Counted from the first letter of the stretch, positions 8,553 through 26,717 are shown. The stretch: DNA of 26,717 nt from Acidobacteriota bacterium (GCA_013696385.1 JACCYR010000126.1:1-26717); one strand, 5' to 3'. Numbers and translations: made by a program. Notes: generated by a model not told the origin, from the letters alone.

Positions 8553-9311
8553 ATGGGTTTAGTTGATACAGAGGGTTTGATTCTCAAAAGTTATAGTTTG
8601 GCGGAAGCCGACAAAATCGTTGTTTTGCTAACGCAAAATGAAGGGCTTGTGCGCGGCGTGGCGAAAGGCGCGAAACGCTTAAAAAGTAAATTTGGCGGCG
8701 GTTTAGAACCATTTTCGATTGTCCAGATTTCATATTTTCAAAAAGAAGAACGGGAACTTGTTTCCATCAGGCAAATAGATCTTCTCAAATCTTATTTCGA
8801 TAATGCCAGCCAGCCGCGATTTCTTCAAAAATTCTCATATTTAGTTGAGCTTTTAGTCGAATTTGCGCCGCCGCACGACCCGAACGAGAGACTTTATCGA
8901 ATGACAAAAGTTTGTCTGGAAACTGCCGCCGAAAATCCCGACAGCCTTGAAAGTATTGCTCTCTATTTTGAACTTTGGATTTTGAGGCTGGGCGGTTATC
9001 TGCCGAATTGGAACAACTGCAATAACTGCAAAAGGGAATTGGAGCAAAATGAAAATTCAGGTTTGCAGATAAATTTTCATCTTGTTTGCAACAATTGCCA
9101 AAAAAGCCGTAATAATTGGATAATTTCTCCTGAACAAAGACAAATTTTTATCACTGCACAAAAAGTTTCGCCGACAAAATTTGTTGAATTTACCAAGAAT
9201 TATCAGAAAGGTGTTAAAGAGGTTTCGATTATTTTACGGCGCATAATTTCAAATATACTTGGGAAAGAAACCGTCGGTGAAAAAATTCTAACGGCAAGTT
9301 CTAAATTGTAA
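8553..9311 (+). CDS. recO: DNA repair protein RecO (zinc-finger type)
   Basis: EADKIVVLLT..EGLVRGVAKGAKR.KSKFGG.LEPF OB-fold; CNNC...CNNC zinc finger. Confidence 0.96.
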   Translation: MGLVDTEGLILKSYSLAEADKIVVLLTQNEGLVRGVAKGAKRLKSKFGGGLEPFSIVQISYFQKEERELVSIRQIDLLKSYFDNASQPRFLQKFSYLVELLVEFAPPHDPNERLYRMTKVCLETAAENPDSLESIALYFELWILRLGGYLPNWNNCNNCKRELEQNENSGLQINFHLVCNNCQKSRNNWIISPEQRQIFITAQKVSPTKFVEFTKNYQKGVKEVSIILRRIISNILGKETVGEKILTASSKL

Positions 9312-11596
9312 TGAAGCGTTTTAGCCCTTTAATCTCAAGATATTTGGTGCAATCCATTTTGCCTTATTTCATTTTTTCGTGGCTGTTATTAAGCGTCATT
9401 CTTTTTGTTCAACAAGCCAGCCGTTTCTCCGATATTTTTTTTAGCGCGAATATTCCTAAAAACTTGGTTTGGCAACTGACACTCGCGCTTGTGCCGAATG
9501 TTATCGCCTTTACTTGTCCGATGGCGGTTTTGGTCGGAGTCATCATCGGGCTTTCAAAAATGCAGGGCGATAGCGAACTGATTGCAATCCGCGCCGTCGG
9601 AGTTGGGAACTTTCAGATTACTTTTCCAATTCTTGTTTTAGGCATTTTGCTTTCATTTTTTGCATTTTTTATCAACTTAAACGGCGTTCCTTTTGCCGCG
9701 CGGATTGTTCGCCAAATAGCTTTGCAAACCGCGCTTTATAAGCTCGAATCACCTATCGAACCCGGGGTTTTTAACACCGAAATAAATGGCTATACAATTT
9801 ATGTCAAAGACGGAAATTTTGAAAAGGGAACTTGGAAAAATATATTTATTTATAATGAAGATAAATCAAATGGTTTGGTGCGTCTGATAACGTCTAAAAG
9901 TGGTCGGATTGATACGAAAGAAGACAGGTCAGAATTGGTTTTAGAAAATGCGAATATCAATACATTTTCTACTGAAACAGAGGCGGAAAAATTTATTTCT
10001 GAAAATATTGGTCAGATTCGGATAGCGATAGAAACAAAACGTTCCAAAATAATTGAAAAACTTAGTAAAAGTGAAGAAGCACCCGAAGAGTTGGGCTTGA
10101 GAGAACTTGCCCAACTAGCAAAAACAAAAGAAGGGAAAGAAAAAACTGAGGCACAAATTCTTTGGCAGAGAAGAATAATTCTTTCAATCACGCCCTTAAT
10201 TTTTGCTTTGCTGGGAACGGCTTTGGTTTTAAGATTTAACCGCGGCGGCAAAGGTTTTGGTGTTTTTTTAGCACTTGTTAGTTTAGTTATATATTATCTG
10301 CTTGCGCTTTTGGGTGAACAACTTGCTAGAACCAATCAAATTAGTGTCTTAACCTCAGGTCTTCTTCCGGTATTAGCTAGCTTCTTTTTTATTTTCTGGT
10401 TTTTACTTTCAACCCGCTTTATATTGAAAAAAAATATTGGCAACATCGGGAAACAATTTAAGATAAATTTTCCGTCAAATCTAAAAGAAGGTTCAGCCCG
10501 AAATTATTATATTGATTTAACAACGGGCATTTTGGATTTAGATATTGTCTTAAATCTACTCAAGTATTTTTTTCTGACGTTTGGCTTCTTAACAGCAGTC
10601 TATATGATTTTTACGGCATTTGAACTCTGGAAATTTGCCGGAGAAATCAATAACGGAATCTCACTTTTAATCCGCTATCTTTTATTTTTGATACCTTTTA
10701 TCTATATTCAACTTGCGCCGTCTGCCCTGATGATAGCGACTTTGGCGACATTCGTTATCAAATCCAGACAAAACGAAATTGTTAGCTGGACCGCCGCCGG
10801 TCAAAGCGTCTATCGGCTTTTTCTCCCCTGTTTTGTTTTAATGATATTTTTAGGCGCGGTAAATTGGGGAATACAAGAATCGGTTGCGCCAAAAACAAAT
10901 GTGATTCAAGACGAATTACGCGCTCAGATTCGCGGTCGCGGAGTGTTGTTGAGCAAAACGGGGAAAAATTGGGTCGCTAATAACAAAAGAATTTATTCAT
11001 TTGAACTAGAAGGAAATAAAAGCGGAACGAATCAAATCGTAAAAAATCTAACAATTTATGAATTTTCTGATGACAACTCCAAACTTCAAACTATTTACCG
11101 AACACCGACAGCAATTTGGGAAAAAGATAAAATTAAATTATTGGACAATACGGAAAAAACTGTTTGGAGCGATGGCAAGACAGATATTAGACAAATTTCA
11201 GATGTTGAAATTAAAGAAAACTCAAACCTATTTAATTCATTAAATGATAAACCGAGCCATCTCACCACAAAAGAAACCAGGGAACAGATTAATAATACAA
11301 AATCAGAAACAGAGCAAAGAATTTACGAAGTAGCTTTGGAAAAAAAGACCACAACGCCTTTCCTGCCTCTCGTAATTACACTGTTTACAGCACCATTTGC
11401 TTTATCTTTAAGCCGAACGGGTAAAGTCAGAACGATTAGTTACGCGATTGCGATTTGGCTATTGTTTATGGGTATTACAACTATCTTTGAACAATTTGGA
11501 TTAAATGGTTTTCTGGCACCCGAAACAGCCGTTTGGAGTCCGCTTTTATTGTTCTCGATGTTGGGCATTTTTTTGTTATCAAAAGTTAAAACCTAA
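9311..11596 (+). CDS. lptFG: fused LPS export ABC permease LptF-LptG
   Basis: Two tandem YjgP/YjgQ units, each TM-TM-TM, beta-jellyroll, TM-TM-TM (RYL..., KMQGDSELIAIRAVG and KSRQNEIVSWTAAG); 761 aa; TAATG overlap with recO. Confidence 0.9.
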   Translation: MKRFSPLISRYLVQSILPYFIFSWLLLSVILFVQQASRFSDIFFSANIPKNLVWQLTLALVPNVIAFTCPMAVLVGVIIGLSKMQGDSELIAIRAVGVGNFQITFPILVLGILLSFFAFFINLNGVPFAARIVRQIALQTALYKLESPIEPGVFNTEINGYTIYVKDGNFEKGTWKNIFIYNEDKSNGLVRLITSKSGRIDTKEDRSELVLENANINTFSTETEAEKFISENIGQIRIAIETKRSKIIEKLSKSEEAPEELGLRELAQLAKTKEGKEKTEAQILWQRRIILSITPLIFALLGTALVLRFNRGGKGFGVFLALVSLVIYYLLALLGEQLARTNQISVLTSGLLPVLASFFFIFWFLLSTRFILKKNIGNIGKQFKINFPSNLKEGSARNYYIDLTTGILDLDIVLNLLKYFFLTFGFLTAVYMIFTAFELWKFAGEINNGISLLIRYLLFLIPFIYIQLAPSALMIATLATFVIKSRQNEIVSWTAAGQSVYRLFLPCFVLMIFLGAVNWGIQESVAPKTNVIQDELRAQIRGRGVLLSKTGKNWVANNKRIYSFELEGNKSGTNQIVKNLTIYEFSDDNSKLQTIYRTPTAIWEKDKIKLLDNTEKTVWSDGKTDIRQISDVEIKENSNLFNSLNDKPSHLTTKETREQINNTKSETEQRIYEVALEKKTTTPFLPLVITLFTAPFALSLSRTGKVRTISYAIAIWLLFMGITTIFEQFGLNGFLAPETAVWSPLLLFSMLGIFLLSKVKT

Positions 11597-14420: not shown

Positions 14421-15260
14421 TTAATCTGTTTGGTTATATGACAGATAAGCCAAATTCTTCTTAGTTAGCGAATAACATTCACAAGCCGATTGTTCTAATT
14501 TTTGTCGGTTAAGGATAAAAATTCGCCCGCGGATGTAATCAATAATTCCATTGTTCCGTAAATCCTGAGCAATGAGGGTTAAAGTCGGGCGATGAACTCC
14601 TAGAAAATAGGCGATTTGCTCTTGGGTTAAAATCAACCTGCTTTTTCTGTTGCGGTCGTCGAGCATTAACAGCCAGCTGCAAAAGCGTTCTTCTATTCGG
14701 TGATGGATATTACAGATGGCTCTTTGCGAAATATGGGCGACGTATAAATTTATATAGTCAAGCAATACCGCTTGCAGAAAACCACCGCGACCAAATTCAG
14801 GCTTAAAATTTTTAGCGTTAATCCGCAATGCGATGCCGGCTATCAAAGTTTGCGTCCAAAAAGTCTTTGGTTGAAAACTCAAAATTGTCGATAAACCGGC
14901 TATCCCTTCGTAGCCAATCATTGCTGTTTCGACAGTTCTTCCATCGGCTAAAATATTTAACTGAGAAAAGACGGCAGTTTCGGGAAAATACAAAAACTCG
15001 CTCGTCCCGTCCGGCTGATAAATATCTTCGCCGGAGTTGAAGGAAACCATTTGTAGATGCGGCAGAAGCCGCGCAAAATCAATACTAGGTAAGGCTAAAA
15101 GCAGAGTATTATTTGTCAGTCGTCCGATTGGAAAAGTTTCTCTGGAAACTTGATTCCAATGGCTCGCAAAGCCTTTACCGACAAAAGGCTGACTGACTTT
15201 TAACATTAAAGGCGCATTTCTTTTGATATATCCATTTTTAGTCTTGTAATTATTTATCAT
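14421..15260 (-). CDS. Crp/Fnr family transcriptional regulator (ACECY-tail subfamily)
   Basis: N.LLLALP..DF.RL.PHL, YFPE.AV.S, DG.TVE.A.IG.EG cNMP-fold; H..EERFCSWLL; HTH LTQEQIAYFLGVHRPTLT; C-terminal SACECY; GAGGA SD. Confidence 0.92.
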   Translation of the reverse strand: MINNYKTKNGYIKRNAPLMLKVSQPFVGKGFASHWNQVSRETFPIGRLTNNTLLLALPSIDFARLLPHLQMVSFNSGEDIYQPDGTSEFLYFPETAVFSQLNILADGRTVETAMIGYEGIAGLSTILSFQPKTFWTQTLIAGIALRINAKNFKPEFGRGGFLQAVLLDYINLYVAHISQRAICNIHHRIEERFCSWLLMLDDRNRKSRLILTQEQIAYFLGVHRPTLTLIAQDLRNNGIIDYIRGRIFILNRQKLEQSACECYSLTKKNLAYLSYNQTD

Positions 15261-15325: not shown

Positions 15326-15667
15326 TTAATAAACCTTCCTAATGTCGAGGATTATTAATTTCTCGCTACCGTCAAATTCTCGTTCGCTAATCTGTGTCAG
15401 CATAACTTTTACTTCCAACGGGCGTTCGTTAGATTGACAAGTAAAAGTAAATTTTTCCGCCGAATCCGAGCCTTTGGCAAAATAGCGGAAGCGGCGACGA
15501 AGCTCTTCGCCATTTCCAAACGGCGCGATTTCATCAAAAAAATTAAGCCCGATTAAATCCGGCGGCAAATTTACCGAAGAGTTGTTCGCGTCGATTTTGG
15601 AATACTTCACCGTTCCCATTAAATCGAGTTCAAACAACCCGAACACATTCGCTGAAGTATCTTTCAT
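15326..15667 (-). CDS. stand-alone PAS protein, photoactive-yellow-protein-like, lacking the chromophore Cys
   Basis: FGLFELDLMG...P..LIGLNFFDEIAPF...E....F...F..T......P..VKV aligns without gaps to remembered PYP F28-V107; AAGGAG SD; ATGA overlap with the receiver gene. Confidence 0.75.
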   Translation of the reverse strand: MKDTSANVFGLFELDLMGTVKYSKIDANNSSVNLPPDLIGLNFFDEIAPFGNGEELRRRFRYFAKGSDSAEKFTFTCQSNERPLEVKVMLTQISEREFDGSEKLIILDIRKVY

Positions 15668-16170
15668 AAAACTCCTTTAACAGACGTTTCGTGCGGCTTG
15701 TATTTTTTCCTCAGATATTTTTTAAGCCGTATTTCCAATTGACCGAAATCAATCGGCTTAATCATAAAATCATTGGCACCGGCGGCGAGGGCGGAAGCGT
15801 GAACTGACGGTTCGGAATAGCCGGTAATAAAAATAATCACTGGATCACCGGGTTCGGACAGTTGACGAATCCGCCTGGTGGTGGTGAGCGCGTCAATTTT
15901 TTGGAGTCTATCGCTTATTAATATCAAATCGGGACGATGAATTTCAGCCATTTGAATGGCATCCTCGTCATCCGATGCTTCAATAATGCGATAATTCCAA
16001 AGTTTCAATAAATATTTCATCATTAAGCGCGTATCTTCGTCGTTTTCGACAATCAGGATACGCGGGAAAAAATTTATCGTTCGGGCGAAAAGCGAATTAT
16101 CGTTTGTCACTGCATATACCTCGCTGAAAATATGGCTAGGTGAGGATTTGGAGATGTTTGTAAAATTCAT
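15664..16170 (-). CDS. single-domain atypical (pseudo) response regulator receiver
   Basis: ILIVEND...PDLILISD...IIFITG...GANDFMIKP CheY-like fold; S86 at the phosphoacceptor position; GAGAGG SD. Confidence 0.88.
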   Translation of the reverse strand: MNFTNISKSSPSHIFSEVYAVTNDNSLFARTINFFPRILIVENDEDTRLMMKYLLKLWNYRIIEASDDEDAIQMAEIHRPDLILISDRLQKIDALTTTRRIRQLSEPGDPVIIFITGYSEPSVHASALAAGANDFMIKPIDFGQLEIRLKKYLRKKYKPHETSVKGVL

Positions 16171-16244: not shown

Positions 16245-16294
16245 AAAAAATAAAAAAATTAGAAGGTGAATTTCTGCAAAGAAACTCACCTTCT
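16245..16294 (-). terminator. intrinsic terminator ~75 nt upstream of the receiver gene start
   Basis: Minus strand AGAAGGTGAGTTTCT-TTGC-AGAAATTCACCTTCT (15 bp, one G-U that pairs only on the minus strand), then AATTTTTTTATTTTTT. Confidence 0.8.
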
Positions 16295-16394
16295 CCCCCC
16301 TTGTTCGTGCCGCTGTAGGTTTAACCAAACACGGCGGCAGCTTTCATGAGTTGCTGAAAAAACTTTCCTGTCCGGAAAGTGAAATTCACAACTC
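16245..16394 (-). ncRNA. candidate structured leader/attenuator (or sRNA) with three hairpins
   Basis: Hairpins at 16348-16394, 16308-16339 and 16261-16294 in an otherwise AT-rich intergenic region; no Rfam family recognised. Confidence 0.5.
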
Positions 16395-16704: not shown

Positions 16705-18567
16705 ATGAGTGTTCTTAATTCAAACCACGAATTTGACCAGCACGACCTTTTTCACGTTATTGCGGACGAAACCAATCGTCTGCCGCGTTCTGTTCTTAGG
16801 CGGACGGCTTTTGAGCTGCTCGACGGCAAATGGCGGTTTGCCCTCGACGCCGATGACCGCGGAATCAGCGAACAGTGGTTTATTCAACACGATTTTGCAG
16901 AAACCGCAATGTTTCCCGGTTCAATCGAATCGCATCTTGTCGCTGCTAAAGATTCCAAAGCAGAATCGCCTCTATACACTGAAAGCGATGAAGTAGTCGC
17001 TTGGTATGAGCGCGATTTTAGCGTTCCTGAAGAGTGGAATCGGTCAAATAAAATAACGCAGCTAACATTTGGCGCGTGCGGTTACGAAACGCACGTCTGG
17101 CTCAACGGTGTTCTGCTCAAAACAATCGAAGGCGAAGAAGCGCATCTCGGCGAATACAGTTCGTTTTCATATGAATTGCCTGCCGATTTATTAAAGCCGG
17201 TCAATCGTTTGACGGTTCGCGTTGCCGATACAATAGATGCCGACATCCCGCGCGGCAAACAGGCTTCGCGCGTTTATAAACAAGGCGGCATTTGGTATCA
17301 GACGGTTTCGGGCGCAGTGCGGAGTGTTTGGATTGAACCGGTCGGACGCAATCGTCTGCGTTCGCGGCTTGGAGTTATCAGCAGTTTGCGCGACCATCTA
17401 GTCGAATTCGATTTTACGACCCGCACTCACGAAGCCAGTAAATATCTTCTGCGGCTGACCGTTACGCCGCACGGAAAAACCGAAACGGGCGAGCAAACCA
17501 CTCCGGTTACGGCGCAGTTTCATTTGACTTTGGAAACGGGCGAATACGTCCAGCGTGTTCCGCTTTTGCTGCCGAACGCTAAATTCTGGTCGCCCGACGC
17601 GCCGCATCTCTATCATTTGTGGGCTGAACTGGTCGCACCCGACGGCATTGTAACGGGCATCGAAACTCATTTCGGCTTACGCAAAATCAGCGCGCACGGA
17701 CAGCGCATTTACTTAAATAATGAAGCGATTTATCTGGATGGTATTCTGTATCAGCCAGGCATTTCGACGTTTGAGGAAATACGGCGGCATTTCCATGCCA
17801 TCAAACGACTCGGCTGCAATCTGGCGCGTGTTCACATTGCCGGAATCGACCCGCGCATTTATGATTTAGCCGATGAAATCGGGCTGATGTTGTGGGTTGA
17901 AATTCCTTCGCCGCATAGTTCAAACCAAATGAGCCGTGATAATCACTGGGCTGAATTGCAAAGAATGCTGGTTTTTATCGCTTCGCATCCGTCAATCGTG
18001 CTGCTTAGTTTATACAACGAAGATTGGGGCACGGAAGACATTTCAACCAACGTCGAAACACGAAAATATATTTCCAATACTTTCGATTATCTGCGGCTTT
18101 ACTATCCGCAATTGCTGGTCGTGGATAATGACGGCTGGAATCATGTTTCCCGCAACGGCAGACTTAGCTCGCATCTTTTGACGGCGCACGTATATACGCC
18201 ATCGCCGTCGGCTTGGGTTTCGACTCTCGACCGTCTGGTTGCCGGAGAAACACACGGCATAACGGCGCAGCCTTTGATTGTCGGTGACGAGTATTTTTAT
18301 CGCGGACAAACGCCGCTCGTCATCAGCGAATGGGGCGGTTTCGGTTTTACAAATTACGGCGGACCCGATGAAGTCGAAGGCAAATGCCGTCTGATTCAAC
18401 TATTCAAAGACGAGATGCGGCAACGCCCAATCGCCGGCGACATTTACACGCAGGCAACCAGCATCGAAGATGAAGTGAATGGAATTATTGACCCGACAAG
18501 CGGCGAACTGCTTGTTCCCGCAGGACTTCTCGGCTCATATTCCTACATTGAAATTAAGAAAGAATAA
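16705..18567 (+). CDS. glycoside hydrolase family 2 (beta-galactosidase/galactofuranosidase-like), no signal peptide
   Basis: LDGKWRF..D, WYERDF, L.FGA..Y...VWLNG, WSPDAPHLY, FGLRKI, GQRIYLNNE; putative catalytic Glu in YNEDWG and ISEWGG. Confidence 0.88.
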   Translation: MSVLNSNHEFDQHDLFHVIADETNRLPRSVLRRTAFELLDGKWRFALDADDRGISEQWFIQHDFAETAMFPGSIESHLVAAKDSKAESPLYTESDEVVAWYERDFSVPEEWNRSNKITQLTFGACGYETHVWLNGVLLKTIEGEEAHLGEYSSFSYELPADLLKPVNRLTVRVADTIDADIPRGKQASRVYKQGGIWYQTVSGAVRSVWIEPVGRNRLRSRLGVISSLRDHLVEFDFTTRTHEASKYLLRLTVTPHGKTETGEQTTPVTAQFHLTLETGEYVQRVPLLLPNAKFWSPDAPHLYHLWAELVAPDGIVTGIETHFGLRKISAHGQRIYLNNEAIYLDGILYQPGISTFEEIRRHFHAIKRLGCNLARVHIAGIDPRIYDLADEIGLMLWVEIPSPHSSNQMSRDNHWAELQRMLVFIASHPSIVLLSLYNEDWGTEDISTNVETRKYISNTFDYLRLYYPQLLVVDNDGWNHVSRNGRLSSHLLTAHVYTPSPSAWVSTLDRLVAGETHGITAQPLIVGDEYFYRGQTPLVISEWGGFGFTNYGGPDEVEGKCRLIQLFKDEMRQRPIAGDIYTQATSIEDEVNGIIDPTSGELLVPAGLLGSYSYIEIKKE

Positions 18568-18581
18568 GGTAAAATGAGAGT

Positions 18582-19520
18582 TTAAGTAAAATATGCGACC
18601 AATGCAGAAGCCCGCACGAAGTAAAGGCGATAAGATTTATACGCCCTTACGCGCGTGCGGGCTTCTGCATTTGGAATTCTCTTCAGTTTCCAATATTCGA
18701 GATGTTCGATAGAATCGCCGGGCGCGAGTTTTTTGAGCGGCGCGAGCGATTCGATTTCGATAAAATTGCCTGCCGTATAAAGTTCATTATTCGAGTTCAT
18801 ATCGGGATAAACCGCCGTTTCGATAAAATTAAATTGCTTGGTAAATTCCAAATCGCCAACCAGATATTTTGCCCGACCCTGTTTATTTAAAACGCCGACT
18901 TTTTGCGGTTCGGGTTTGTTTTCGTCAACTTTCAGGCGAATAAAATCCTTATCAAACTTCCAGCGCGAATCAGAAAAATCCGTGTATGACCAGACCGCCA
19001 AATTTCGCACCGGAAGCAGAGTTTCTCCGCCGTAAGGTGCAAACGGCTCGTTCGGAATCAACGCTTCGCCGCCGCCGCGCATAATCGTCAATGCCCACGC
19101 CGCGAGTTCGATTTCCTTGTCGCCGCAATTGGTGATTTTGTGATTTATCGAAACGCCGCTTCCCTTTTCGTCCAGAGTTACGATGATTTCCTTTTGCGTT
19201 TTTGTGATAATTTCAACCGGCTGAACAAGGCGAATCGAATTTCTACGCTCGTCAAATTCATATTCACACGGCGAATTATCGGGCGCGTAACTAATCGGCA
19301 TATTTTCTGGCGCAATCCACAATCGATGCCCGCCGTAAGGCTTAAATTCACCGAGCGCGGTTTCAACTTTCGCATCGAGATGCAAACCTAAAACATTCTC
19401 GCCGCCCGAAAACGCATAATGCAAAATTCGCGGTCCGACATCGGTTGCAGCAATAATTTCAATTTCGCCGTTAGTCAGGCGAAGGCAGTTCGGTAAGTTT
19501 ATGTAAGAGATTTTTTCCAT
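18582..19520 (-). CDS. uncharacterised protein, probable galactose-mutarotase-like beta-sandwich (DUF4380-like)
   Basis: GPRILHY, GGHRLWIAPE...Y.PDN.P, WALT.MRGGG, FIEIESLAP; last gene of the galT-galK run. Start set at ATG 19520 (MEKISY). Confidence 0.7.
   Translation of the reverse strand: MEKISYINLPNCLRLTNGEIEIIAATDVGPRILHYAFSGGENVLGLHLDAKVETALGEFKPYGGHRLWIAPENMPISYAPDNSPCEYEFDERRNSIRLVQPVEIITKTQKEIIVTLDEKGSGVSINHKITNCGDKEIELAAWALTIMRGGGEALIPNEPFAPYGGETLLPVRNLAVWSYTDFSDSRWKFDKDFIRLKVDENKPEPQKVGVLNKQGRAKYLVGDLEFTKQFNFIETAVYPDMNSNNELYTAGNFIEIESLAPLKKLAPGDSIEHLEYWKLKRIPNAEARTRVRAYKSYRLYFVRASALVAYFT
18601..18671. repeat. REPIN-like inverted repeat (family B) inside the 3' end of a CDS
   Basis: 18-bp perfect outer arms AATGCAGAAGCCCGCACG/CGTGCGGGCTTCTGCATT plus inner GTAAAGGCG/CGCCCTTAC; each arm begins GCAG and is itself a short imperfect palindrome. 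Confidence 0.75.
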
Positions 19521-19534
19521 CACAAAAATCAAAG

Positions 19535-19570
19535 TGTTTGGAGTTCCAACTAAAGTTGGAACTCCAAACA
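19535..19570. repeat. REP-like palindrome, family A copy 2
   Basis: TGTTTGGAGTTCCAAC-TAAA-GTTGGAACTCCAAACA perfect 16-bp stem between galK and the next gene. Confidence 0.75.
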
Positions 19571-19574
19571 AAGG

Positions 19575-20738
19575 TTAAAAAATAATTTCGCTCGCGCCGC
19601 CTGCCGGATTTGAAACATAGACATCGGTTGCAATCTGCGTTTGCCGAAAATATTTAATCGAAACTTTTTCGGTAAAATCTTCCAGCTTTTCGCGCCGCAC
19701 GAGATTGACGGTTGAACCGCCGAAACCGCCGCCGGTCATTCTCGCGCCGAGAACGCCCGCACATTCGGAGGCAATTTTCACCAGCAAATCGAGTTCCCGA
19801 CAACTGACTTCGTAGTCATCGCGCAAACTCATGTGCGAAAGCCACATCAACCGTCCGAATTCCTCAAAATCATTTTTTCTTAATGCTTCGGCGGCATCCA
19901 AGGTGCGTTTGTTTTCTGTAACGACGTGGCGGCAACGCTTTCTGATAATTTCCGGCAAATGATTTTTGTATTTTTCAAAATCCGCGACGCTGACATCGCG
20001 CAGGTGAGTAATGCCGGGCAGGAATTTCTGCAAAATCTCAACGCCTTGCTCGCATTCGGCGCGGCGAGTATTGTATTCAGAAGCAGCGAGTTCGTGTTTG
20101 ATGTTTGTGTTGCAAATGGCGATTGCCGCGTCATCGGTCGCAAACGGAACTTGTTCGGCTTGCAACTTGCGGCAATCAATCAAAAGCGCGTGTCCTTTTC
20201 TGCCCAGAGCCGAAACGAATTGGTCCATAATGCCGATTTTCGCGCCGACAAATTCGTGTTCAGCAGCTTGTCCGACAAGCGCAAGTTGAACTTTATCAAT
20301 GCTTTGGTTGGAAATTTCGGTCAATGCCAAACCGACGGAAATTTCCAGCGCGGCGGACGAAGAAAGTCCCGCGCCGGTCGGCACGTCTGAAGAAATCAGC
20401 AAATCCGCGCCGCGCAATTTCACGTTTCGACGTTCCAGAATCCGCGCCACGCCTTCGACAAAATCGAGCCACGAACCGCGAAATTTCTGCTCCGGCGCGT
20501 CTAAATTTATTTCACCTTCTTCGCCTAAATTGACGGAACAAACACGAATTTTCCGGTCTTCACGGACGGCGGCGGCAACAATTGTCGCGTATTCAATTGC
20601 CATCGGAAGAACAAAACCGTCGTTGTAATCGGTGTGTTCGCCAATCAGATTGACTCTGCCCGGAGCGCGGAAAAGTCGCGGCTCGCCTCCGAAACGCGAT
20701 TGATATTCGGTTTGTAAATTCAGGTAATTGATTGCCAT
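19575..20738 (-). CDS. galK: galactokinase
   Basis: RAPGRVNLIGEHTDYNDGFVLP, GHMP motif PTGAGLSSSAA, GIMDQ, GARMTGGGFGG. Confidence 0.98.
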   Translation of the reverse strand: MAINYLNLQTEYQSRFGGEPRLFRAPGRVNLIGEHTDYNDGFVLPMAIEYATIVAAAVREDRKIRVCSVNLGEEGEINLDAPEQKFRGSWLDFVEGVARILERRNVKLRGADLLISSDVPTGAGLSSSAALEISVGLALTEISNQSIDKVQLALVGQAAEHEFVGAKIGIMDQFVSALGRKGHALLIDCRKLQAEQVPFATDDAAIAICNTNIKHELAASEYNTRRAECEQGVEILQKFLPGITHLRDVSVADFEKYKNHLPEIIRKRCRHVVTENKRTLDAAEALRKNDFEEFGRLMWLSHMSLRDDYEVSCRELDLLVKIASECAGVLGARMTGGGFGGSTVNLVRREKLEDFTEKVSIKYFRQTQIATDVYVSNPAGGASEIIF

Positions 20739-20797
20739 TTTAATTTTAACCGCTTAAGAACGCAAGAATTTTCAACAGTATGAATTACGCACAGCCT

Positions 20798-21787
20798 TTA
20801 ATCATTTTTCCAAATTACCGGCTCAACGAGTCGGCGCAGTTCAAACGCTTTTTCTTCGGCGAGCGTGTCGTTGATAAACATTCCCGCGCCGGTTTCGCTG
20901 CCCGCCAAAAATTTCAGCTTTGTCGCGGAGCGCATCGGCGGATAAAATTCGATATGAAAATGATAATAATTATAATCGCCGCCGGACGGTTTTTGGTGCA
21001 AAACCATCATATACGGAAACGACACATCGAAAAGTTTGTCAAAAGCGACTAAAACCTGTTTCAAAATCGAAGCTAAATCAATCTGTTCAGCCGTCGAAAA
21101 CTGCGTCAAATCCGGCAAATGCCGTTTGGCGGCAATGTGCAGTTCATACGGATAACGCGCAAAAAACGGAATATAAGCCGCAAACGAATCATTTTCCGCG
21201 ACGATGCGCCGTCCGTCTCGGCGTTCTTCGGCAACAATATCACACAGCAGACAGCGATTATGTTTTTCCAGATAAAGCCGCGATTGTTCCAACTCTTTCT
21301 CAATCCGCGGCGGCACAAACGGATAAGCGTAAATCTGCCCGTGCGGGTGATGCAGAGTTACGCCGATTGCCTCGCCTTTATTTTCAAAAATAAAAACGTA
21401 TCTGACAAAATCGAGTTTTGAAAGTTCCCGAAAACGGTCTGTCCAAACCTGCACGAGTTTATAAATTTGCTCGACAGGTTCGGCGGCGAGCGTCGAATTA
21501 TGATTCGGCGTGTAGACGACGACTTCGCATTCGCCGAAACTTTTTTCAACCGGATAGAGTTCGGTTGATTCAATTGCCGGTTCGGGCGGATTCGGGCTGA
21601 GACTCGGAAATTTATTCTCGAAAACAACGATGTCATAGACGGGTTCGGGAACTTCGGTCGGAAAACCGCCGGGCGCGGTCGGACACAGCGGACAAAAATC
21701 CTTCGGCGGCAAAAACGTGCGGTCTTGGCGAGCGGTGGCGGTTGCCAGCCATTCGCCCAACAGCGGATTCCATCTTAATTCAGACAT
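20798..21787 (-). CDS. galT: galactose-1-phosphate uridylyltransferase
   Basis: ELRWNPLLGEW, CPLCP, VFENKFPSL, FENKG..IGVTLHHPHGQ (HPH nucleophile), HFHIEFYPP. Confidence 0.97.
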   Translation of the reverse strand: MSELRWNPLLGEWLATATARQDRTFLPPKDFCPLCPTAPGGFPTEVPEPVYDIVVFENKFPSLSPNPPEPAIESTELYPVEKSFGECEVVVYTPNHNSTLAAEPVEQIYKLVQVWTDRFRELSKLDFVRYVFIFENKGEAIGVTLHHPHGQIYAYPFVPPRIEKELEQSRLYLEKHNRCLLCDIVAEERRDGRRIVAENDSFAAYIPFFARYPYELHIAAKRHLPDLTQFSTAEQIDLASILKQVLVAFDKLFDVSFPYMMVLHQKPSGGDYNYYHFHIEFYPPMRSATKLKFLAGSETGAGMFINDTLAEEKAFELRRLVEPVIWKND

Positions 21788-22007: not shown

Positions 22008-22655
22008 TTAATTATCCTCGAGCCAGCCTTGCAAAATAGCAAAGCGCACGATGTCTATGCGGCTGCCGATGTCGAGTTTCCGCATCGCGTTGGCTTTGTG
22101 GGCTTCGACGGTTTTGACGCTGATTTCAAGATTATAGGCAATTTCCTTGTTGCTGTAGCCCCAGGCAATCTGGCGCAGAACTTCCGATTCACGTTCGCTG
22201 AGAGTTAATTTTCCGGCAAGATTAATTTGCCGCGGGGCATAACCGCCGATGACTCTGCCCGTAACTGTCGGGTCGAGATAGTTGCCGCCTTTGGCAATGG
22301 CGCGGATGGCGCGGAGCATTTCGCTCGAAGGACTTTGCTTTAAAACATAACCGCTGGCTCCGGCGCGGAGCAGTTCTTGAAGATAACCGTCATCGGTGTG
22401 GCGTGTCAAGGTTAAAATTTTCATCTGCGGGCAAAGTTGTTTGAGTTTTCGGGTCGCCTTCAGACCGTTTAATTCCGGCATCGTAACATCCATCACGACG
22501 ACATCGGGCTGGAGTTCCTGCGCCATTTTAACCGCGGTGCGACCGTCGCCACATTCGCCGCACACTTCCATATCGGCTTGCGCGTTGATAATCAACCGCA
22601 AACCTTCGCGCACGGTTTCGTGGTCTTCGGCGATAAAAATGCGTAGGTTGTTCAT
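22008..22655 (-). CDS. NarL/LuxR-family DNA-binding response regulator
   Basis: IFIAEDH, PDVVVMD (Asp intact), LTLT, GYVLK; HTH LSERESEVL..IAWG.SNKEIA..L.IS.KTVE.HK.N.M.KL. ATG at 22655. Confidence 0.95.
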   Translation of the reverse strand: MNNLRIFIAEDHETVREGLRLIINAQADMEVCGECGDGRTAVKMAQELQPDVVVMDVTMPELNGLKATRKLKQLCPQMKILTLTRHTDDGYLQELLRAGASGYVLKQSPSSEMLRAIRAIAKGGNYLDPTVTGRVIGGYAPRQINLAGKLTLSERESEVLRQIAWGYSNKEIAYNLEISVKTVEAHKANAMRKLDIGSRIDIVRFAILQGWLEDN

Positions 22656-22681
22656 AAGTTTCAAGTTTCAAGTCTCAAGTC
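22656..22681. repeat. heptamer tandem repeat (AAGTYTC)x3.7
   Basis: AAGTTTC AAGTTTC AAGTCTC AAGTC directly upstream of the regulator ATG. Confidence 0.7.
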
Positions 22682-22706: not shown

Positions 22707-25700
22707 TTACCCGCCCGCAGTCTGCGCTCCCAGCGGGACGCGGACGAAAATCGTTGTTCCCTGATTGATTACCGATTCGATTTCGAGCGTTCCGCCGATG
22801 AGCGCGGCACGTTCGCGCATACCGATTAAGCCCAAGCCTTTTCCGTTCTTCAAAGTTGTCGCTTTTTTAATATCAAAGCCTTGCCCGTCGTCTTCGATAA
22901 TCAGCATAATTTCTTTGCCGCGACATTCGAGCAGCACGGACGCTTGGTTGGCGCGGGCGTATTTGCCGGTGTTGTTCAGGGCTTCCTGCACGATGCGGTA
23001 AAAATTCAGCTCGATTGCCATCTCCAATGCAATCGTTTCCAAACCGCTCGTATGAAATTCCGCCGGAATGTCGAAATGAATTGACCATTCCTTAATATAA
23101 TCATTTAACGCTGTCGTCAATCCCAAATCTTTGAGCGCGGCGGGGCGCAATTCCCAGGCAAGAAAATCGAGGTCGGAATCAACCTGTTCGGCAATTTTTT
23201 GGGTTCGCGTAATCTTTTCGCATAAATCCGCGTTATCCGCGCAATCTTTTTGAAGCATTTCAAGATTCAGGCGGAGCGCGGTCAATTGTTGTCCGAGATG
23301 GTCGTGCAACTCACGCGAAATGCGCTGGCGTTCGTCTTCCTGCGACGTAACGAGTTTTTTTAGAAGCGTCAAGCGTTGCTGCTCGATTTGTTGGCGCTCG
23401 GCGATTTCCGCTTGTAAGGTCGAATTGGCTGAAGCCAACTCGACCGTCCGCAATTGAACCTTTATTTCCAAACTTTCGTGCGCGAGGCGTAATGCTGCTT
23501 CGGCTTGGGTTTTTTCGGTCATATCGCGGGCGATTTTGACAAAGCCGAGCAGATTGCCGCCTTCATCCGCTAAAGCCCGCATTACGCCGGATGCGTAAAA
23601 GCGCGATTCGTCTTTGCGTATGTGAAAGCGTTCGTCTTCGGCAAATCCTTTTTCGCGGGCGGTCTTTGTTTCCTTTTCGGGAACATTGACGGCGCGGTCT
23701 TCGGGCATGAATAAAATTTCGTAATGTTCGCCGATGATTTCACTTTCAGTCCAGCCGAAAATACGCTCCGCGCCGGTGTTCCAAAATTCAATCAAACAAT
23801 TTTCAGCCGAGATGCCGATAATGGCGTAATCCTTCGCGCTTTCGATTAGAAGGCGCAGGCGTTCTTCGCTCTGACGCAGTTTTTCTTCCGATTGTTTTCT
23901 GATAGTTACGTCGCGCGTCGAACCGGCAACGAATTCAACCGTGCCGCCTTTGGCAAAAACGGGCGTGAGAATATATTCGTAAAAACCGTTTTCGCCAGCC
24001 AGATTTGTGAATGACGTTTCGTCTTTGACCATTTCTCCGGTGTCGAAAACGTGCTGAATTTGTTTTTGGAGAAGCACGGCTAAATCCGGTGGATAATTCA
24101 AATCGTGAAAGTTTTTCCCGACAATTTCTTCCGCCGTAATGCCTAATAAATCGAACAACGGCTGATTGGCAAAAACGAAACGCCCATCGCGGTCGAACAA
24201 GTAAGCAAAATCGCTGATTGCCGAAAGCGTCGTATCGAAAATGCGCGTTTGCCGTTCCAGCCGTTCGGCGATTTCCTCTAATTCCTTTCCGTGCCGCTTG
24301 CGCGTCGTAATATCCAAAAAGGTAGCGATAACGCCGTCAATTCGGTTGTCAGCCGTGCGATACGGCAAGATATTCGTCAGATAAACGCGCCCTTCGCTCG
24401 TCGTAACTTCGCGCTCGATTGATTGCAGACTGGCAAGCACCTTTTCGGCTTCGGCGTGTAAATCCGAATCCGAGAGTTTGGTCGTAATATCGGAAATCGG
24501 TCTGCCGATGTCCGCCGGACGCAGATTGTAAATGTCGAGGAGGCGCGGCGTAAATAATTTTATGCGAAGCGAACGGTCGAGAAACAGAGTGCCGATGTCG
24601 GTCGAAGCTATCAGATTGAGAAAATCATCGTTCGATTGGGAAAGTTCTTCGATTTTTATTTTCAATTCCTGATTGACCGTGTGGAGTTCTTCGTTGATTG
24701 ACTGAAATTCCTCTTTGCCGGTTTCGAGTTCTTCAGTCGCCGAACGCAGTTCTTCGTTCATCGCCTGCAATTCTTCGTTCGACGCTTTGAGTTCTTCGGT
24801 CTGCGTTTCGTATTGGTCAACCGTCGTGTGCAATTGCTCGTGCAGCTGCACGAGTTCGGCTTCGAGTTGTCGCGCCGGTTCGTCTAAACTAATCAGCCGC
24901 ACCGCCGTTCTCGCGTCGTTCGCCTCATTTGCTTCTTCAAACAACACGAGCAGAAAACCGCGCGGAACATCCGCGCCTTCGCGCAAAACCGGACGGACGA
25001 CGAGATTGATTTTTTGGATTTTTTCATCACCGATTTGAATTTCAAGCCCGCGTGTTTCGACACTTGCGGCGGTTTGCACCGCCTGATAAAGCGCGGTACG
25101 AAGTGCCAGCCGCAAATCGGGGTGAATAATTTTTAACAGATTATAAGACGGCTCGCCACCCGCCACCGCCAGATATTTTCCGGCGCGCGGTGTCAGATGC
25201 AGAATATCGTAGTTTTCGCTGACGATGATTGACGGCGGCGCGTATTTTTCAAGCAGTCGCTGGTGCAAATCGGTATACGCCATTCGTTCGAGCGCGTTCG
25301 CTTCTTCAATCCGCCGCATTTCAGCCGGGCGCGTCGGCTGTAAATCGGTGCGCGGCAGCATCAAATCGGAAATCGGCAGAGAGACACGGGCATTGACGTT
25401 GCGGCTTTGATAAATGTGATGTTCTTTGTCAGAGACGGCGAATAACTCAACGGCGACATCGGCGGATTCACTTGTTCCCAAAAACAAAAATCCGCCCGCA
25501 TTTAATGAAAAATGGAAAATTTCCATCGCGCGCTTTTGCGCCGCACGGTTAAGATAAATAAGTAGATTGCGGCACGAAACAAGGTCGAGATGCGAAAACG
25601 GCGGGTCTTTGATGACATTGTGAATGGCAAATAAAACACGCTCGCGCAAATCGCGCCGAACACGATAACCGTTCGGTTCGGCGACAAAAAAACGGCGCAG

Positions 25701-26717
25701 GCGTTCCGGGGATACGTCGGCGGTGTCGGTCGCCGTGTAAAAACCTTCGCGGGCAATGGCAATCGCGGATTCGTCAATATCGGTGGCGAAAATTTGTATG
25801 GCGGGCGCGTCTCTCAAATTCTCGGCGTATTCGACGGTGAGCATCGCCAGAGAATACGCTTCTTCGCCCGTCGCGCAGCCCGCAACCCAAACGCGCACAG
25901 TGTCGTTCGCCGTTTTATTCTCGAAAAGTCTGGCGATAATCCGTCGTTCCAGCTGGTTGAAAGTTTCCGAATCGCGGAAAAAATTCGTGACCGAAATCAG
26001 CAAATCACGCAGCAGTGCCGACGCTTCCGACGGCTGTTCGTGCAGCAGGCGCGAATAATCCTGTATACTTTTGAGTTCGTGAACATTGACGCGGCGTTCG
26101 ATGCGCCGGAGAACGGTGGCGCGTTTGTAATTTGAAAAATCGTGTCCGGTGCGGATTCTGAGTTGTGTAAAAATATCATGCAGGGCGCGTTCGTCGGTTT
26201 CTGGTCTTTCCCGCAATTCGGGCGAAATCGTAACTTTGCCGAGATTTTCCCGATAACCGATAATTCTCGCGGGCATCTCCGCCGCGGGCAAAACGAAATC
26301 AACCAATCCGGTTGCTAAAGAATTGCGCGGCATATCAGTATATTCGGCTTCGTTCGGGTCTTGGACAAAAACCACGCCGCCTTTTTCCTTAACGCGCTTC
26401 ATTCCCATCGAACCATCCGCGCCCGTGCCTGACAAAATAACGGCGGCGGCGCGTGATTCGTGCGATTCGGCGAGTGTGCGAAAGAAAATATCAATCGGCG
26501 CACGACGCTCTTCAATCCGCGTTACGTCCGACAAAGCCAGATGCCCGTCGTTCATTTTCAGACTTTTATTCGGCGGAATAACATAGACATGATTCGGCAC
26601 GACTTTAACCTTCTCTTCCTGCACCTGTGTAACCGGAATTGACGCGCTCTGCTGGAGAATTTCCGCCAAAAGACTGTCGTGTTCGGGCGACAGATGCAGA
26701 ATAACGACATATGCCAT
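22707..26717 (-). CDS. CheB-CheR-PAS-PAS-PAS-HisKA_3 histidine kinase (5' end beyond window)
   Basis: CheB (VVILH, PIDIFFRTLA, LSGTGADG), CheR (VWVAGCATGEEAYS, ATDID, CRNLLIY), EEL heptad coiled coil, PAS domains, H-box RELHDHLGQ, HATPase QEALNN/DDGQGF/GLGLIGMRERA. Confidence 0.95.
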   Translation of the reverse strand: MAYVVILHLSPEHDSLLAEILQQSASIPVTQVQEEKVKVVPNHVYVIPPNKSLKMNDGHLALSDVTRIEERRAPIDIFFRTLAESHESRAAAVILSGTGADGSMGMKRVKEKGGVVFVQDPNEAEYTDMPRNSLATGLVDFVLPAAEMPARIIGYRENLGKVTISPELRERPETDERALHDIFTQLRIRTGHDFSNYKRATVLRRIERRVNVHELKSIQDYSRLLHEQPSEASALLRDLLISVTNFFRDSETFNQLERRIIARLFENKTANDTVRVWVAGCATGEEAYSLAMLTVEYAENLRDAPAIQIFATDIDESAIAIAREGFYTATDTADVSPERLRRFFVAEPNGYRVRRDLRERVLFAIHNVIKDPPFSHLDLVSCRNLLIYLNRAAQKRAMEIFHFSLNAGGFLFLGTSESADVAVELFAVSDKEHHIYQSRNVNARVSLPISDLMLPRTDLQPTRPAEMRRIEEANALERMAYTDLHQRLLEKYAPPSIIVSENYDILHLTPRAGKYLAVAGGEPSYNLLKIIHPDLRLALRTALYQAVQTAASVETRGLEIQIGDEKIQKINLVVRPVLREGADVPRGFLLVLFEEANEANDARTAVRLISLDEPARQLEAELVQLHEQLHTTVDQYETQTEELKASNEELQAMNEELRSATEELETGKEEFQSINEELHTVNQELKIKIEELSQSNDDFLNLIASTDIGTLFLDRSLRIKLFTPRLLDIYNLRPADIGRPISDITTKLSDSDLHAEAEKVLASLQSIEREVTTSEGRVYLTNILPYRTADNRIDGVIATFLDITTRKRHGKELEEIAERLERQTRIFDTTLSAISDFAYLFDRDGRFVFANQPLFDLLGITAEEIVGKNFHDLNYPPDLAVLLQKQIQHVFDTGEMVKDETSFTNLAGENGFYEYILTPVFAKGGTVEFVAGSTRDVTIRKQSEEKLRQSEERLRLLIESAKDYAIIGISAENCLIEFWNTGAERIFGWTESEIIGEHYEILFMPEDRAVNVPEKETKTAREKGFAEDERFHIRKDESRFYASGVMRALADEGGNLLGFVKIARDMTEKTQAEAALRLAHESLEIKVQLRTVELASANSTLQAEIAERQQIEQQRLTLLKKLVTSQEDERQRISRELHDHLGQQLTALRLNLEMLQKDCADNADLCEKITRTQKIAEQVDSDLDFLAWELRPAALKDLGLTTALNDYIKEWSIHFDIPAEFHTSGLETIALEMAIELNFYRIVQEALNNTGKYARANQASVLLECRGKEIMLIIEDDGQGFDIKKATTLKNGKGLGLIGMRERAALIGGTLEIESVINQGTTIFVRVPLGAQTAGG

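Follow-up and report, generated by a model that had tools for sequence, protein, structure and literature searches.

Background

What does a protein do that has the core of PYP and lacks the residues with which PYP holds and tunes its pigment? The question is raised by a small gene in a stretch of 26,717 nucleotides from an Acidobacteriota bacterium (GCA_013696385.1, JACCYR010000126.1), which was analysed at its full length and is here called the window. The source assembly comprises 2.26 Mb and is 71% complete. PYP, photoactive yellow protein, is a bacterial blue-light sensor that serves as the structural prototype for PAS domains and is much used in time-resolved structural biology.

Membership in the PYP family requires Cys69, which forms a thioester with p-coumaric acid (PMC9664959, PMC12826048). 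Because both surveys define the family by this residue, proteins such as the one described here are excluded from them. The evolutionary origin of PYP and its downstream partners are open questions according to both (PMC9664959, PMC12826048). Here we report that the product of the gene, P0001, belongs to a Cys-less sister clade of PYP that is of considerable size, has not been described before and carries a conserved receiver/Crp operon. Membership in a large clade and conservation of the operon were both absent from the initial annotation of the window.

The PYP-like gene

P0001 is a PYP-like, single PAS-domain protein of 113 aa without Cys69, recognised by its match to TIGR02373, by matches in the PDB and by a model with PAS fold. 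Its gene occupies positions 15326..15667 on the minus strand, with the ATG at 15667 and the stop codon at 15326-15328 as read from the sequence, and Cys77 is the sole cysteine of the product. A Shine-Dalgarno sequence, AAGGAG (15672..15677, minus strand), lies 4 nt before the ATG, within the last codons of a receiver gene whose TGA overlaps the ATG of P0001; the overlap reads ATGA at 15667-15664. The reading frame given in the initial annotation is thereby confirmed in its coordinates, and it is accompanied by a ribosome-binding sequence.

Kinship with PYP

Searched against NCBIfam, P0001 gave a single match, TIGR02373 (E 1.2e-9, 38.3 bits), in which its residues 8-93 align with profile positions 26-111. 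The curated cut-off of this model, 143 bits, was reached neither by P0001 nor by any of the 57 members of its family. These members are homologous clusters of 43-99% identity and 105-134 aa in length, collected by a word-indexed search. All of them match TIGR02373 (best E 2.6e-13), and weak matches to the Pfam models PAS_4 and PAS occur in nine (best E 6e-4) and six (best E 2.5e-3) of the 57, respectively. P0001 itself has no Pfam match at E<=10, PAS models included; the Cys-less clade reveals a gap in the coverage of the Pfam PAS models.

Comparison of P0001 with all PDB sequences by phmmer returned 33 PYP/Ppr sequences (best E 5e-5), and the only other row, a pilus assembly protein, was insignificant (E 0.47). 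The profile of the 57-member family found only PYP/Ppr in the PDB, 33 sequences with E from 1e-10 to 2e-7 and no other PAS domain with E <0.1. The alignment is ungapped and places 7-93 on 26-112, at an offset of 19. For profile-profile alignment by hhalign, eight PYP domains with Cys69, drawn from acidobacterial genomes and from a metagenomic MCP-PYP, served as the counterpart; this gave 99.3% probability and E 1.6e-20 over 87 ungapped columns. Among curated models and solved structures, the significant relatives of P0001 are PYPs only. As judged from these profiles, the resemblance of P0001 to PYP is real, specific and far above chance.

A gapless alignment to PYP at offset 19, with some 21 identities, had been claimed in the initial annotation. 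The profile-PDB search bears out the former, and 22% identity over 96 structurally aligned residues, equal to about 21, agrees with the latter. PAS_4 or PAS_9 models do not describe the family as well as PYP does and no gaps break the motifs, since every member matches TIGR02373, the Pfam PAS models mostly miss the family and the profile alignments are gapless. P0001 thus shares with PYP a PAS core that is gapless over about 87 residues, and it keeps the scaffold residues F28, G29, D34, G37, G59, N61, F62, F63, V66, A67, P68, F79, F92 and V105. Most PYPs, too, are stand-alone proteins of about 115-125 aa.

Structural model

An AlphaFold2 model of P0001, built on the 57-sequence alignment (pLDDT 81.7, pTM 0.76), contains five strands (10-14, 19-25, 70-78, 84-93 and 104-111) and helices at 43-47 and 53-65. 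It thus has the five-stranded antiparallel sheet with flanking helices that is expected of the PAS superfamily. The first eight residues are of low confidence. Residues 26-42 are predicted as coil without any helix, whereas PYP carries, in the equivalent region, the short helices bearing E46, T50 and R52.

The initial annotation had named TIGR02373 and a Foldseek comparison as checks of its assignment. The former gave the E-value of 1.2e-9 reported above, and the latter, run with the model against the PDB, placed PYP at all of ranks 1-32. In VIA-align, the top match was 1odv, a cap-less PYP deletion mutant lacking residues 1-25 (Z 10.7, model residues 9-112 on 28-125), and the Ppr PYP domain was second (Z 10.3), with ARNT PAS-B close behind (Z 10.2 and 10.0). 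There were 157 PDB representatives with Z>=5, and among the matches listed all are PAS domains. A search of AlphaFold DB clusters with P0001 returned only generic multidomain PAS proteins. Structure alone therefore says PAS, and the specific link to PYP comes from sequence. That P0001 is an ordinary PAS domain, similar to PYP by coincidence or merely by shared fold, is the least tenable of the explanations considered and was rejected: the PYP scores barely exceed those of ARNT PAS-B and the TIGR02373 score is far under the cut-off, but in sequence profiles PYP stands out by many orders of magnitude, most of the family escapes the Pfam PAS models, and 10 or 11 of the 15 published PYP scaffold residues are retained (PMC12826048).

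The chromophore site

Residues were mapped onto the family profile by means of P0059, an MCP-PYP protein with four true PYP domains. In this mapping Y42, E46, T50, R52, C69, F96 and Y98 of PYP correspond to positions 23, 27, 31, 33, 50, 77 and 79 of P0001. These positions carry Ser23 (Y42S), Ala27 (E46A), Ser31 (T50S), Asn33 (R52N), Phe50 (C69F), Cys77 (F96C) and a serine in place of Y98 (Y98S). The replacements of Y42, E46, R52 and C69 and the location of C77 at the F96 position are just those that had been read from the sequence initially. A single-sequence HMMER alignment introduces a compensating pair of one-residue gaps that puts Y22 on Y42. We rejected Y22 as the equivalent of Tyr42: the profile-sequence, profile-profile and true-PYP alignments are gapless and have S23 there. 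The assignment is further contradicted by a Tyr-Tyr pair at positions 41-42 in true PYPs (loci L029 and L035) and in some family members.

Because only 8 residues precede the equivalent of F28, P0001 has no N-terminal cap, which is what the initial annotation had stated. Four of the nine published PYP pocket residues (PMC12826048) are kept, namely the equivalents of F62, V66, A67 and P68, and the three chemically essential ones are all replaced. The simultaneous loss of Tyr42 and Glu46 was never found by surveys in a functional PYP (PMC9664959). With Cys69, Tyr42 and Glu46 all replaced, P0001 cannot function as a canonical photoreceptor. The earlier description of a non-photoactive protein with PYP-type fold is supported both by the replaced pigment residues and by the PYP-type PAS core seen in sequence and model.

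No gene for an aromatic ammonia-lyase or a p-coumaroyl-CoA ligase (pCL) was detected in the window, in agreement with the claim that neither TAL nor the ligase is encoded nearby. In the 71%-complete genome, the best match to TIGR02372, which was used to look for a PYP-type ligase, scores 59 bits against a cut-off of 335, and one aromatic lyase is present on another contig. Among pyp operons in general, the chromophore supply genes TAL and pCL are present in only 5% and 32%, respectively (PMC12826048).

P0001 thus differs from PYP by the absence of Cys69, Tyr42, Glu46, the Thr50/Arg52 pair and the N-terminal cap, by its 38 bits against the 143-bit cut-off of TIGR02373, by the lack of a detected TAL or pCL, and by its place in a separate clade with conserved residues of its own (E13, Y22, R59, D108 and R110). 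Since the pigment residues and the cap are absent and the clade is separate, neither binding of p-coumarate nor light sensing is expected of it.

One might still suppose that Cys77 makes P0001 a photoreceptor or a redox sensor, as a relocated thioester site, as a site for another chromophore or as a reactive thiol. Cys77 is the only cysteine and lines the former chromophore pocket, and in the wider family no other residue is as frequent here (Cys in 112 of 210 family domains, Phe in 31 and Tyr in 21). However, orthologues of 75-80% identity that have the same operon carry Tyr, Ser or Asp at position 77, the two residues that tune and protonate the chromophore, Tyr42 and Glu46, are missing, a double loss that surveys never found in a functional PYP (PMC9664959), and no pCL reaches the cut-off in the 71%-complete genome. 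We regard such a function as very improbable. The conservation of C77 among orthologues, which had been put forward as a check, is thus not observed. Cys77 as an alternative attachment site, one of the two possibilities raised initially, is not supported, because the residue varies in orthologues and no PYP-type p-coumaroyl-CoA ligase was found in the window or in the 71%-complete genome. As a conserved functional residue Cys77 was rejected, being Cys in only 112 of the 210 domains and replaced in close orthologues.

The Cys-less clade

In an exhaustive search, the family profile was compared with 1.84 billion cluster representatives (clusters at 50% identity). Family representatives numbered 520 at E<=1e-3 and 207 at E<=1e-10, and almost all have 105-135 aa. 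Members of the Cys-less clade come mostly from Acidobacteriota, as do the ESM Atlas neighbours of the family, and the named genomes with close members belong to Pyrinomonadaceae (Acidobacteriota). Among 400 sampled Acidobacteriota genomes, only the source genome and one other contain full-length matches to the family. A further 22 genomes of the sample gave matches, and the ten that were translated all encode Cys69 PYPs or PYP-kinase fusions.

Of 210 family domains, 149 have Phe at position 50 and 10 have Cys, the latter including the four true PYP domains of P0059. E13 is found in 195 domains (93%), Y22 in 180 (86%), G40 in 208 and F63 in 205, and in the ungapped rows of the family alignment position 110 is R or K in 98% and position 108 is D or H in 86%. 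The chromophore-loop scaffold (F43, F44, I47, A48 and P49) is kept in P0001 and conserved in the family. At the equivalents of E46, T50 and R52 no residue exceeds 27%, and this segment is the least conserved of all. By this alignment, the PYP positions that contact polar groups of the chromophore are unconserved in the Cys-less clade.

In a maximum-likelihood tree, one branch (SH-aLRT 98) parts 14 Cys69 PYP domains from 49 Cys-less members. Rooting with PAS domains of kinases was uninformative, because the outgroup branches are very long (3-8 substitutions per site); they attach inside the close family. The Cys-less clade can itself serve as an outgroup in studies of the gain or loss of the pigment site. 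Nothing resembling it appears in the PYP surveys, including the 'PYP_like' list (PMC9664959, PMC12826048), and a full-text literature search returned no description.

Published parallels in kind are the Cys69-substituted 'PYP_like' homologues (Xing et al. 2022, PMC9664959), such as the Y-E-W proteins of Magnetospirillum/Phaeospirillum and methylobacterial Ppr-PYP. They too are PYP homologues with another residue instead of Cys69, and they are suspected of a new function. In contrast to P0001, these homologues either retain Tyr42 and Glu46 or are domains within large kinases or cyclases, and their hosts are Proteobacteria and members of other phyla. A single-domain acidobacterial family in which Ser, Ala and Phe occupy positions 42, 46 and 69 is absent from the list, as is a receiver/Crp operon.

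Several observations concern true PYPs and distant family members. Cys69 PYPs of one acidobacterial family (f33; loci L026, L027, L028, L031, L032 and L034 in the Acidobacteriota genomes G172, G091, G103, G363, G052 and G262) are extended at the N-terminus by about 40 aa with a zinc-ribbon-like four-Cys pattern, CxWCG...HxIC..C, and their cap differs from the H. halophila type. Loci L029 and L035 (genomes G216 and G271) encode Acidobacteriota PYP-histidine kinase fusions of about 360 aa with Tyr-Tyr at 41-42, and one of the two comes from the same family as the source genome. Because such fusions occur in Acidobacteriota, one of them in the family of the source genome, true PYPs and the Cys-less clade coexist in this lineage. 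A distant family member, P0148 (locus L020 and its 51-kb JGI counterpart), has Tyr-Tyr at 22-23 and His at 108. It is surrounded by several Crp-type genes, extra receivers, a MEDS-REC protein and a KaiC-like ATPase, which form a dense signalling island.

The receiver gene

The gene that overlaps the start of P0001 (15664..16170, minus strand) codes for a single-domain receiver of 168 aa with an N-terminal extension of about 36 aa (Pfam Response_reg, E 1.4e-19). Alignment to the PhoP receiver 1mvo and to orthologues places Ser86 at the phospho-acceptor Asp; the acidic pair is replaced by Glu42/Asn43, and Thr116 and Lys138 are retained. The receiver of the window therefore has neither the acceptor Asp nor the acidic pair of a phosphorylatable receiver, and by these residues it is a pseudo-receiver in this lineage. 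Its close Pyrinomonadaceae relatives likewise have Ser at the acceptor position. The Asp is kept in the receivers of loci L004, L005, L020 and L023 and in the fusion proteins P0097 and P0105, and Glu stands there in the fusion P0110. Retention of the Asp in more distant relatives suggests, in an unrooted tree, that the pseudo-receiver state is the derived one.

A receiver gene lies upstream of the PYP-like gene, or is fused to it, in 14 of the 17 distinct loci, distant subgroups included. Overlaps of 4-11 nt between the two genes recur (L001, L005, L020, L023 and L036), and P0097, P0105 and P0110 are three representatives of natural receiver-PYP-like fusions. The receiver gene is absent at two acidobacterial loci (L012 and L025), and the distant locus L038 has neither a receiver nor a Crp-type partner. 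Translational coupling or fusion of the PYP-like protein with a receiver is thus conserved, and gene fusion makes the receiver a candidate direct partner. An AlphaFold model of P0105, based on a 4-sequence alignment, has two domains joined by a disordered linker at 142-163 (pTM 0.48). The idea that this linker serves as a surrogate N-terminal cap or makes a fixed REC-PAS contact finds no support in the shallow-alignment model.

The leader of about 530 nt upstream of the receiver gene contains two terminator-like hairpins with T-runs (16261-16294 and 16362-16380, minus strand). The number of hairpins does not exceed the expectation from shuffled sequences, and an Rfam search of the operon region gave nothing significant.

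Neighbouring genes

Downstream of P0001, at 14421..15260 on the minus strand, lies the gene of a Crp/Fnr-family regulator of 279 aa (HTH_Crp_2, E 1.4e-15), in which the Pfam cNMP_binding domain is matched only below the cut-off (E 0.013). A Crp-type gene directly follows the PYP-like gene in 13 of the 17 distinct loci. Two further signalling genes are found towards the far end of the window, both on the minus strand: a NarL/FixJ-type response regulator with receiver and GerE HTH domains (22008..22664; Response_reg E 4.7e-28, GerE E 3.9e-21), and a sensor kinase with Pfam domain order CheB-CheR-PAS(x3)-HisKA_3-HATPase (22707..26717), whose 5' end is cut by the window edge. No chemoreceptor or CheA/CheW gene stands beside this kinase in the window.

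In relatives, the NarL-type gene is directly upstream of the receiver, PYP-like and Crp genes, and a kinase of the same architecture heads the cluster in L001, L003, L005 and L012. The order there is CheB-CheR-PAS-HisKA_3 kinase, NarL/FixJ regulator, receiver, PYP-like gene and Crp/Fnr regulator, and all of these are present in the window. Adjacency of the PYP-like gene to a Crp/Fnr-type regulator and to a PAS-kinase/NarL-type pair is thus conserved. In the window, the NarL-type gene is parted from the receiver by a galactose-utilisation block (16705..21787), identified by Pfam, with a GH2 glycosidase on the plus strand and an unknown gene, GalK and GalT on the minus strand. Relatives have no such block there; as an insertion specific to this lineage, it divides the signalling cluster without being part of the module.

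Comparison with known regulatory systems

Among true Cys69 PYPs, Rec fusions and nearby Crp or GerE regulators occur as well (PMC12826048), which adds to the likeness between the two clades. The receiver and the PYP-like protein also recall the REC-PAS regulators (Galperin et al. 2018, PMC5847659), which combine a receiver and a PAS domain with no enzymatic or DNA-binding output. In the Cys-less clade the two domains are either fused, as in P0097, P0105 and P0110, or encoded by overlapping genes, and co-translation or fusion of receiver and PAS is seen both in the ATGA overlap of the window and in the count of 14 out of 17 loci. The differences are that the PAS domain here is of the PYP clade and usually a separate polypeptide, and that the receiver of the window lacks the acceptor Asp.

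In layout, the circuit encoded at the locus resembles FixL-FixJ-FixK-FixT, with a PAS kinase, a NarL/FixJ regulator, a Crp/Fnr regulator and a non-phosphorylated single-domain receiver; in that circuit, FixT is a receiver of this kind, which works by binding and inhibits its kinase (PMC7078487). Such gene content is present in the window and in L001, L003 and L005, as a matter of domain content only, and the comparison is one of how the circuits might work. No orthology is claimed. The kinase here has CheB, CheR and HisKA_3 domains, and the PYP-like protein has no counterpart in the Fix circuit.

Proposed function

What, then, would a PYP-like protein do without its pigment? With moderate confidence we propose that P0001 is a light-blind, chromophore-free and cap-less PAS core that acts as a non-photoactive protein-protein adaptor or output module of a two-component/Crp circuit. 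A role in protein interaction is favoured because the segment equivalent to E46, T50 and R52 is variable and predicted as coil, because polar conservation lies on the outer face of the sheet, and because the protein is coupled or fused to a receiver. When the gapless PYP alignment and the alternation along strands are used to orient the residues, the polar residues of highest conservation (E13, Y22, D/H108 and R/K110) map to the outer sheet face, with K/R87 alongside. This face is covered by the N-terminal cap in PYP, and it is the usual docking surface of PAS domains.

The receiver and the PYP-like PAS protein would be made in equal amounts and act together as a split REC-PAS protein, and the uncapped outer face with E13, Y22, D108 and R110 would be the docking surface for a partner. 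The most probable partner would be the receiver, followed by the Crp-type regulator encoded alongside, which seems to have a degenerate nucleotide pocket of its own (cNMP_binding E 0.013), or by the PAS domains of the kinase. The PAS kinase and the NarL/FixJ-type regulator may switch on the operon of the Crp-type regulator and of a non-phosphorylatable receiver that modulates the pathway. Because the receiver has lost its acceptor Asp in this lineage, the signal would here enter the trio by expression or binding and not by phosphotransfer. REC-PAS proteins without other outputs are a recognised class and are thought to act by dimerisation or partner binding (PMC5847659). The conserved candidate partners, that is the receiver, the Crp-type regulator and the PAS kinase, offer a tractable system for the partner surface of a PYP-type PAS domain. 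Should the protein be only a generic adaptor, several hundred 'hypothetical proteins' of Acidobacteriota would still gain a better annotation.

Some observations speak against an adaptor. The model of the P0105 fusion predicts no fixed REC-PAS contact, although it is drawn from four sequences; the receiver gene is missing from L012 and L025, and both partners are missing from L038; and most PAS domains are sensors. Moreover, retention of the F62, V66, A67 and P68 equivalents and good conservation of Phe50 fit a remodelled ligand site equally well. P0001 may thus still be a sensor, in which a remodelled pocket, lined by Phe12, Ser23, Phe43, Ile47, Ala48, Pro49, Phe50 and Cys77 as candidates, binds a small hydrophobic or aromatic molecule non-covalently and the receiver and Crp-type regulator relay the signal. 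The PAS fold is a classic ligand-binding module, the structural neighbours of the model include the ligand-binding ARNT/HIF PAS-B domains and the RpfR-BDSF complex, and the chromophore-loop scaffold is conserved. Raw counts at positions 50 and 77 suggest compensation in size, with 108 aromatic/small and 35 non-aromatic/large combinations against 29 and 19 mixed ones. When tested on phylogenetically independent pairs, however, this covariation lacks significance (5 supported pairs, median p 1). Family members vary at the polar positions through which PYP contacts its ligand (27, 31, 33, 78 and 81), and the segment with these positions is predicted as coil. Bulky Phe residues at 12 and 50 may simply fill the cavity, and the loci of relatives show no conserved gene nearby for the synthesis or transport of a candidate ligand. 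On balance, we consider a non-covalent ligand sensor, the other possibility raised initially, less probable than an adaptor and at the same time a serious rival to it.

A bolder reading of the whole clade may be drawn, which we regard as rather doubtful. The Cys-less proteins would then not be decayed PYPs; they would represent the non-photoactive stock that gave rise to the light sensor, or a parallel lineage of equal age, and together with their partners they would make up a three-protein module that signals purely by contacts on the uncapped PAS sheet. Each canonical chemistry would be lost or degenerate in this lineage: the phospho-Asp of the receiver and the chromophore site of PYP are gone, and the nucleotide domain of the Crp-type protein matches weakly.

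Elsewhere in the window, an open reading frame of 761 aa (9311-11596, plus strand) has two LptF_LptG matches, which suggests a fused LptF-LptG permease. A 762-aa form of it occurs in L005, and in L006 it is represented by two separate genes.
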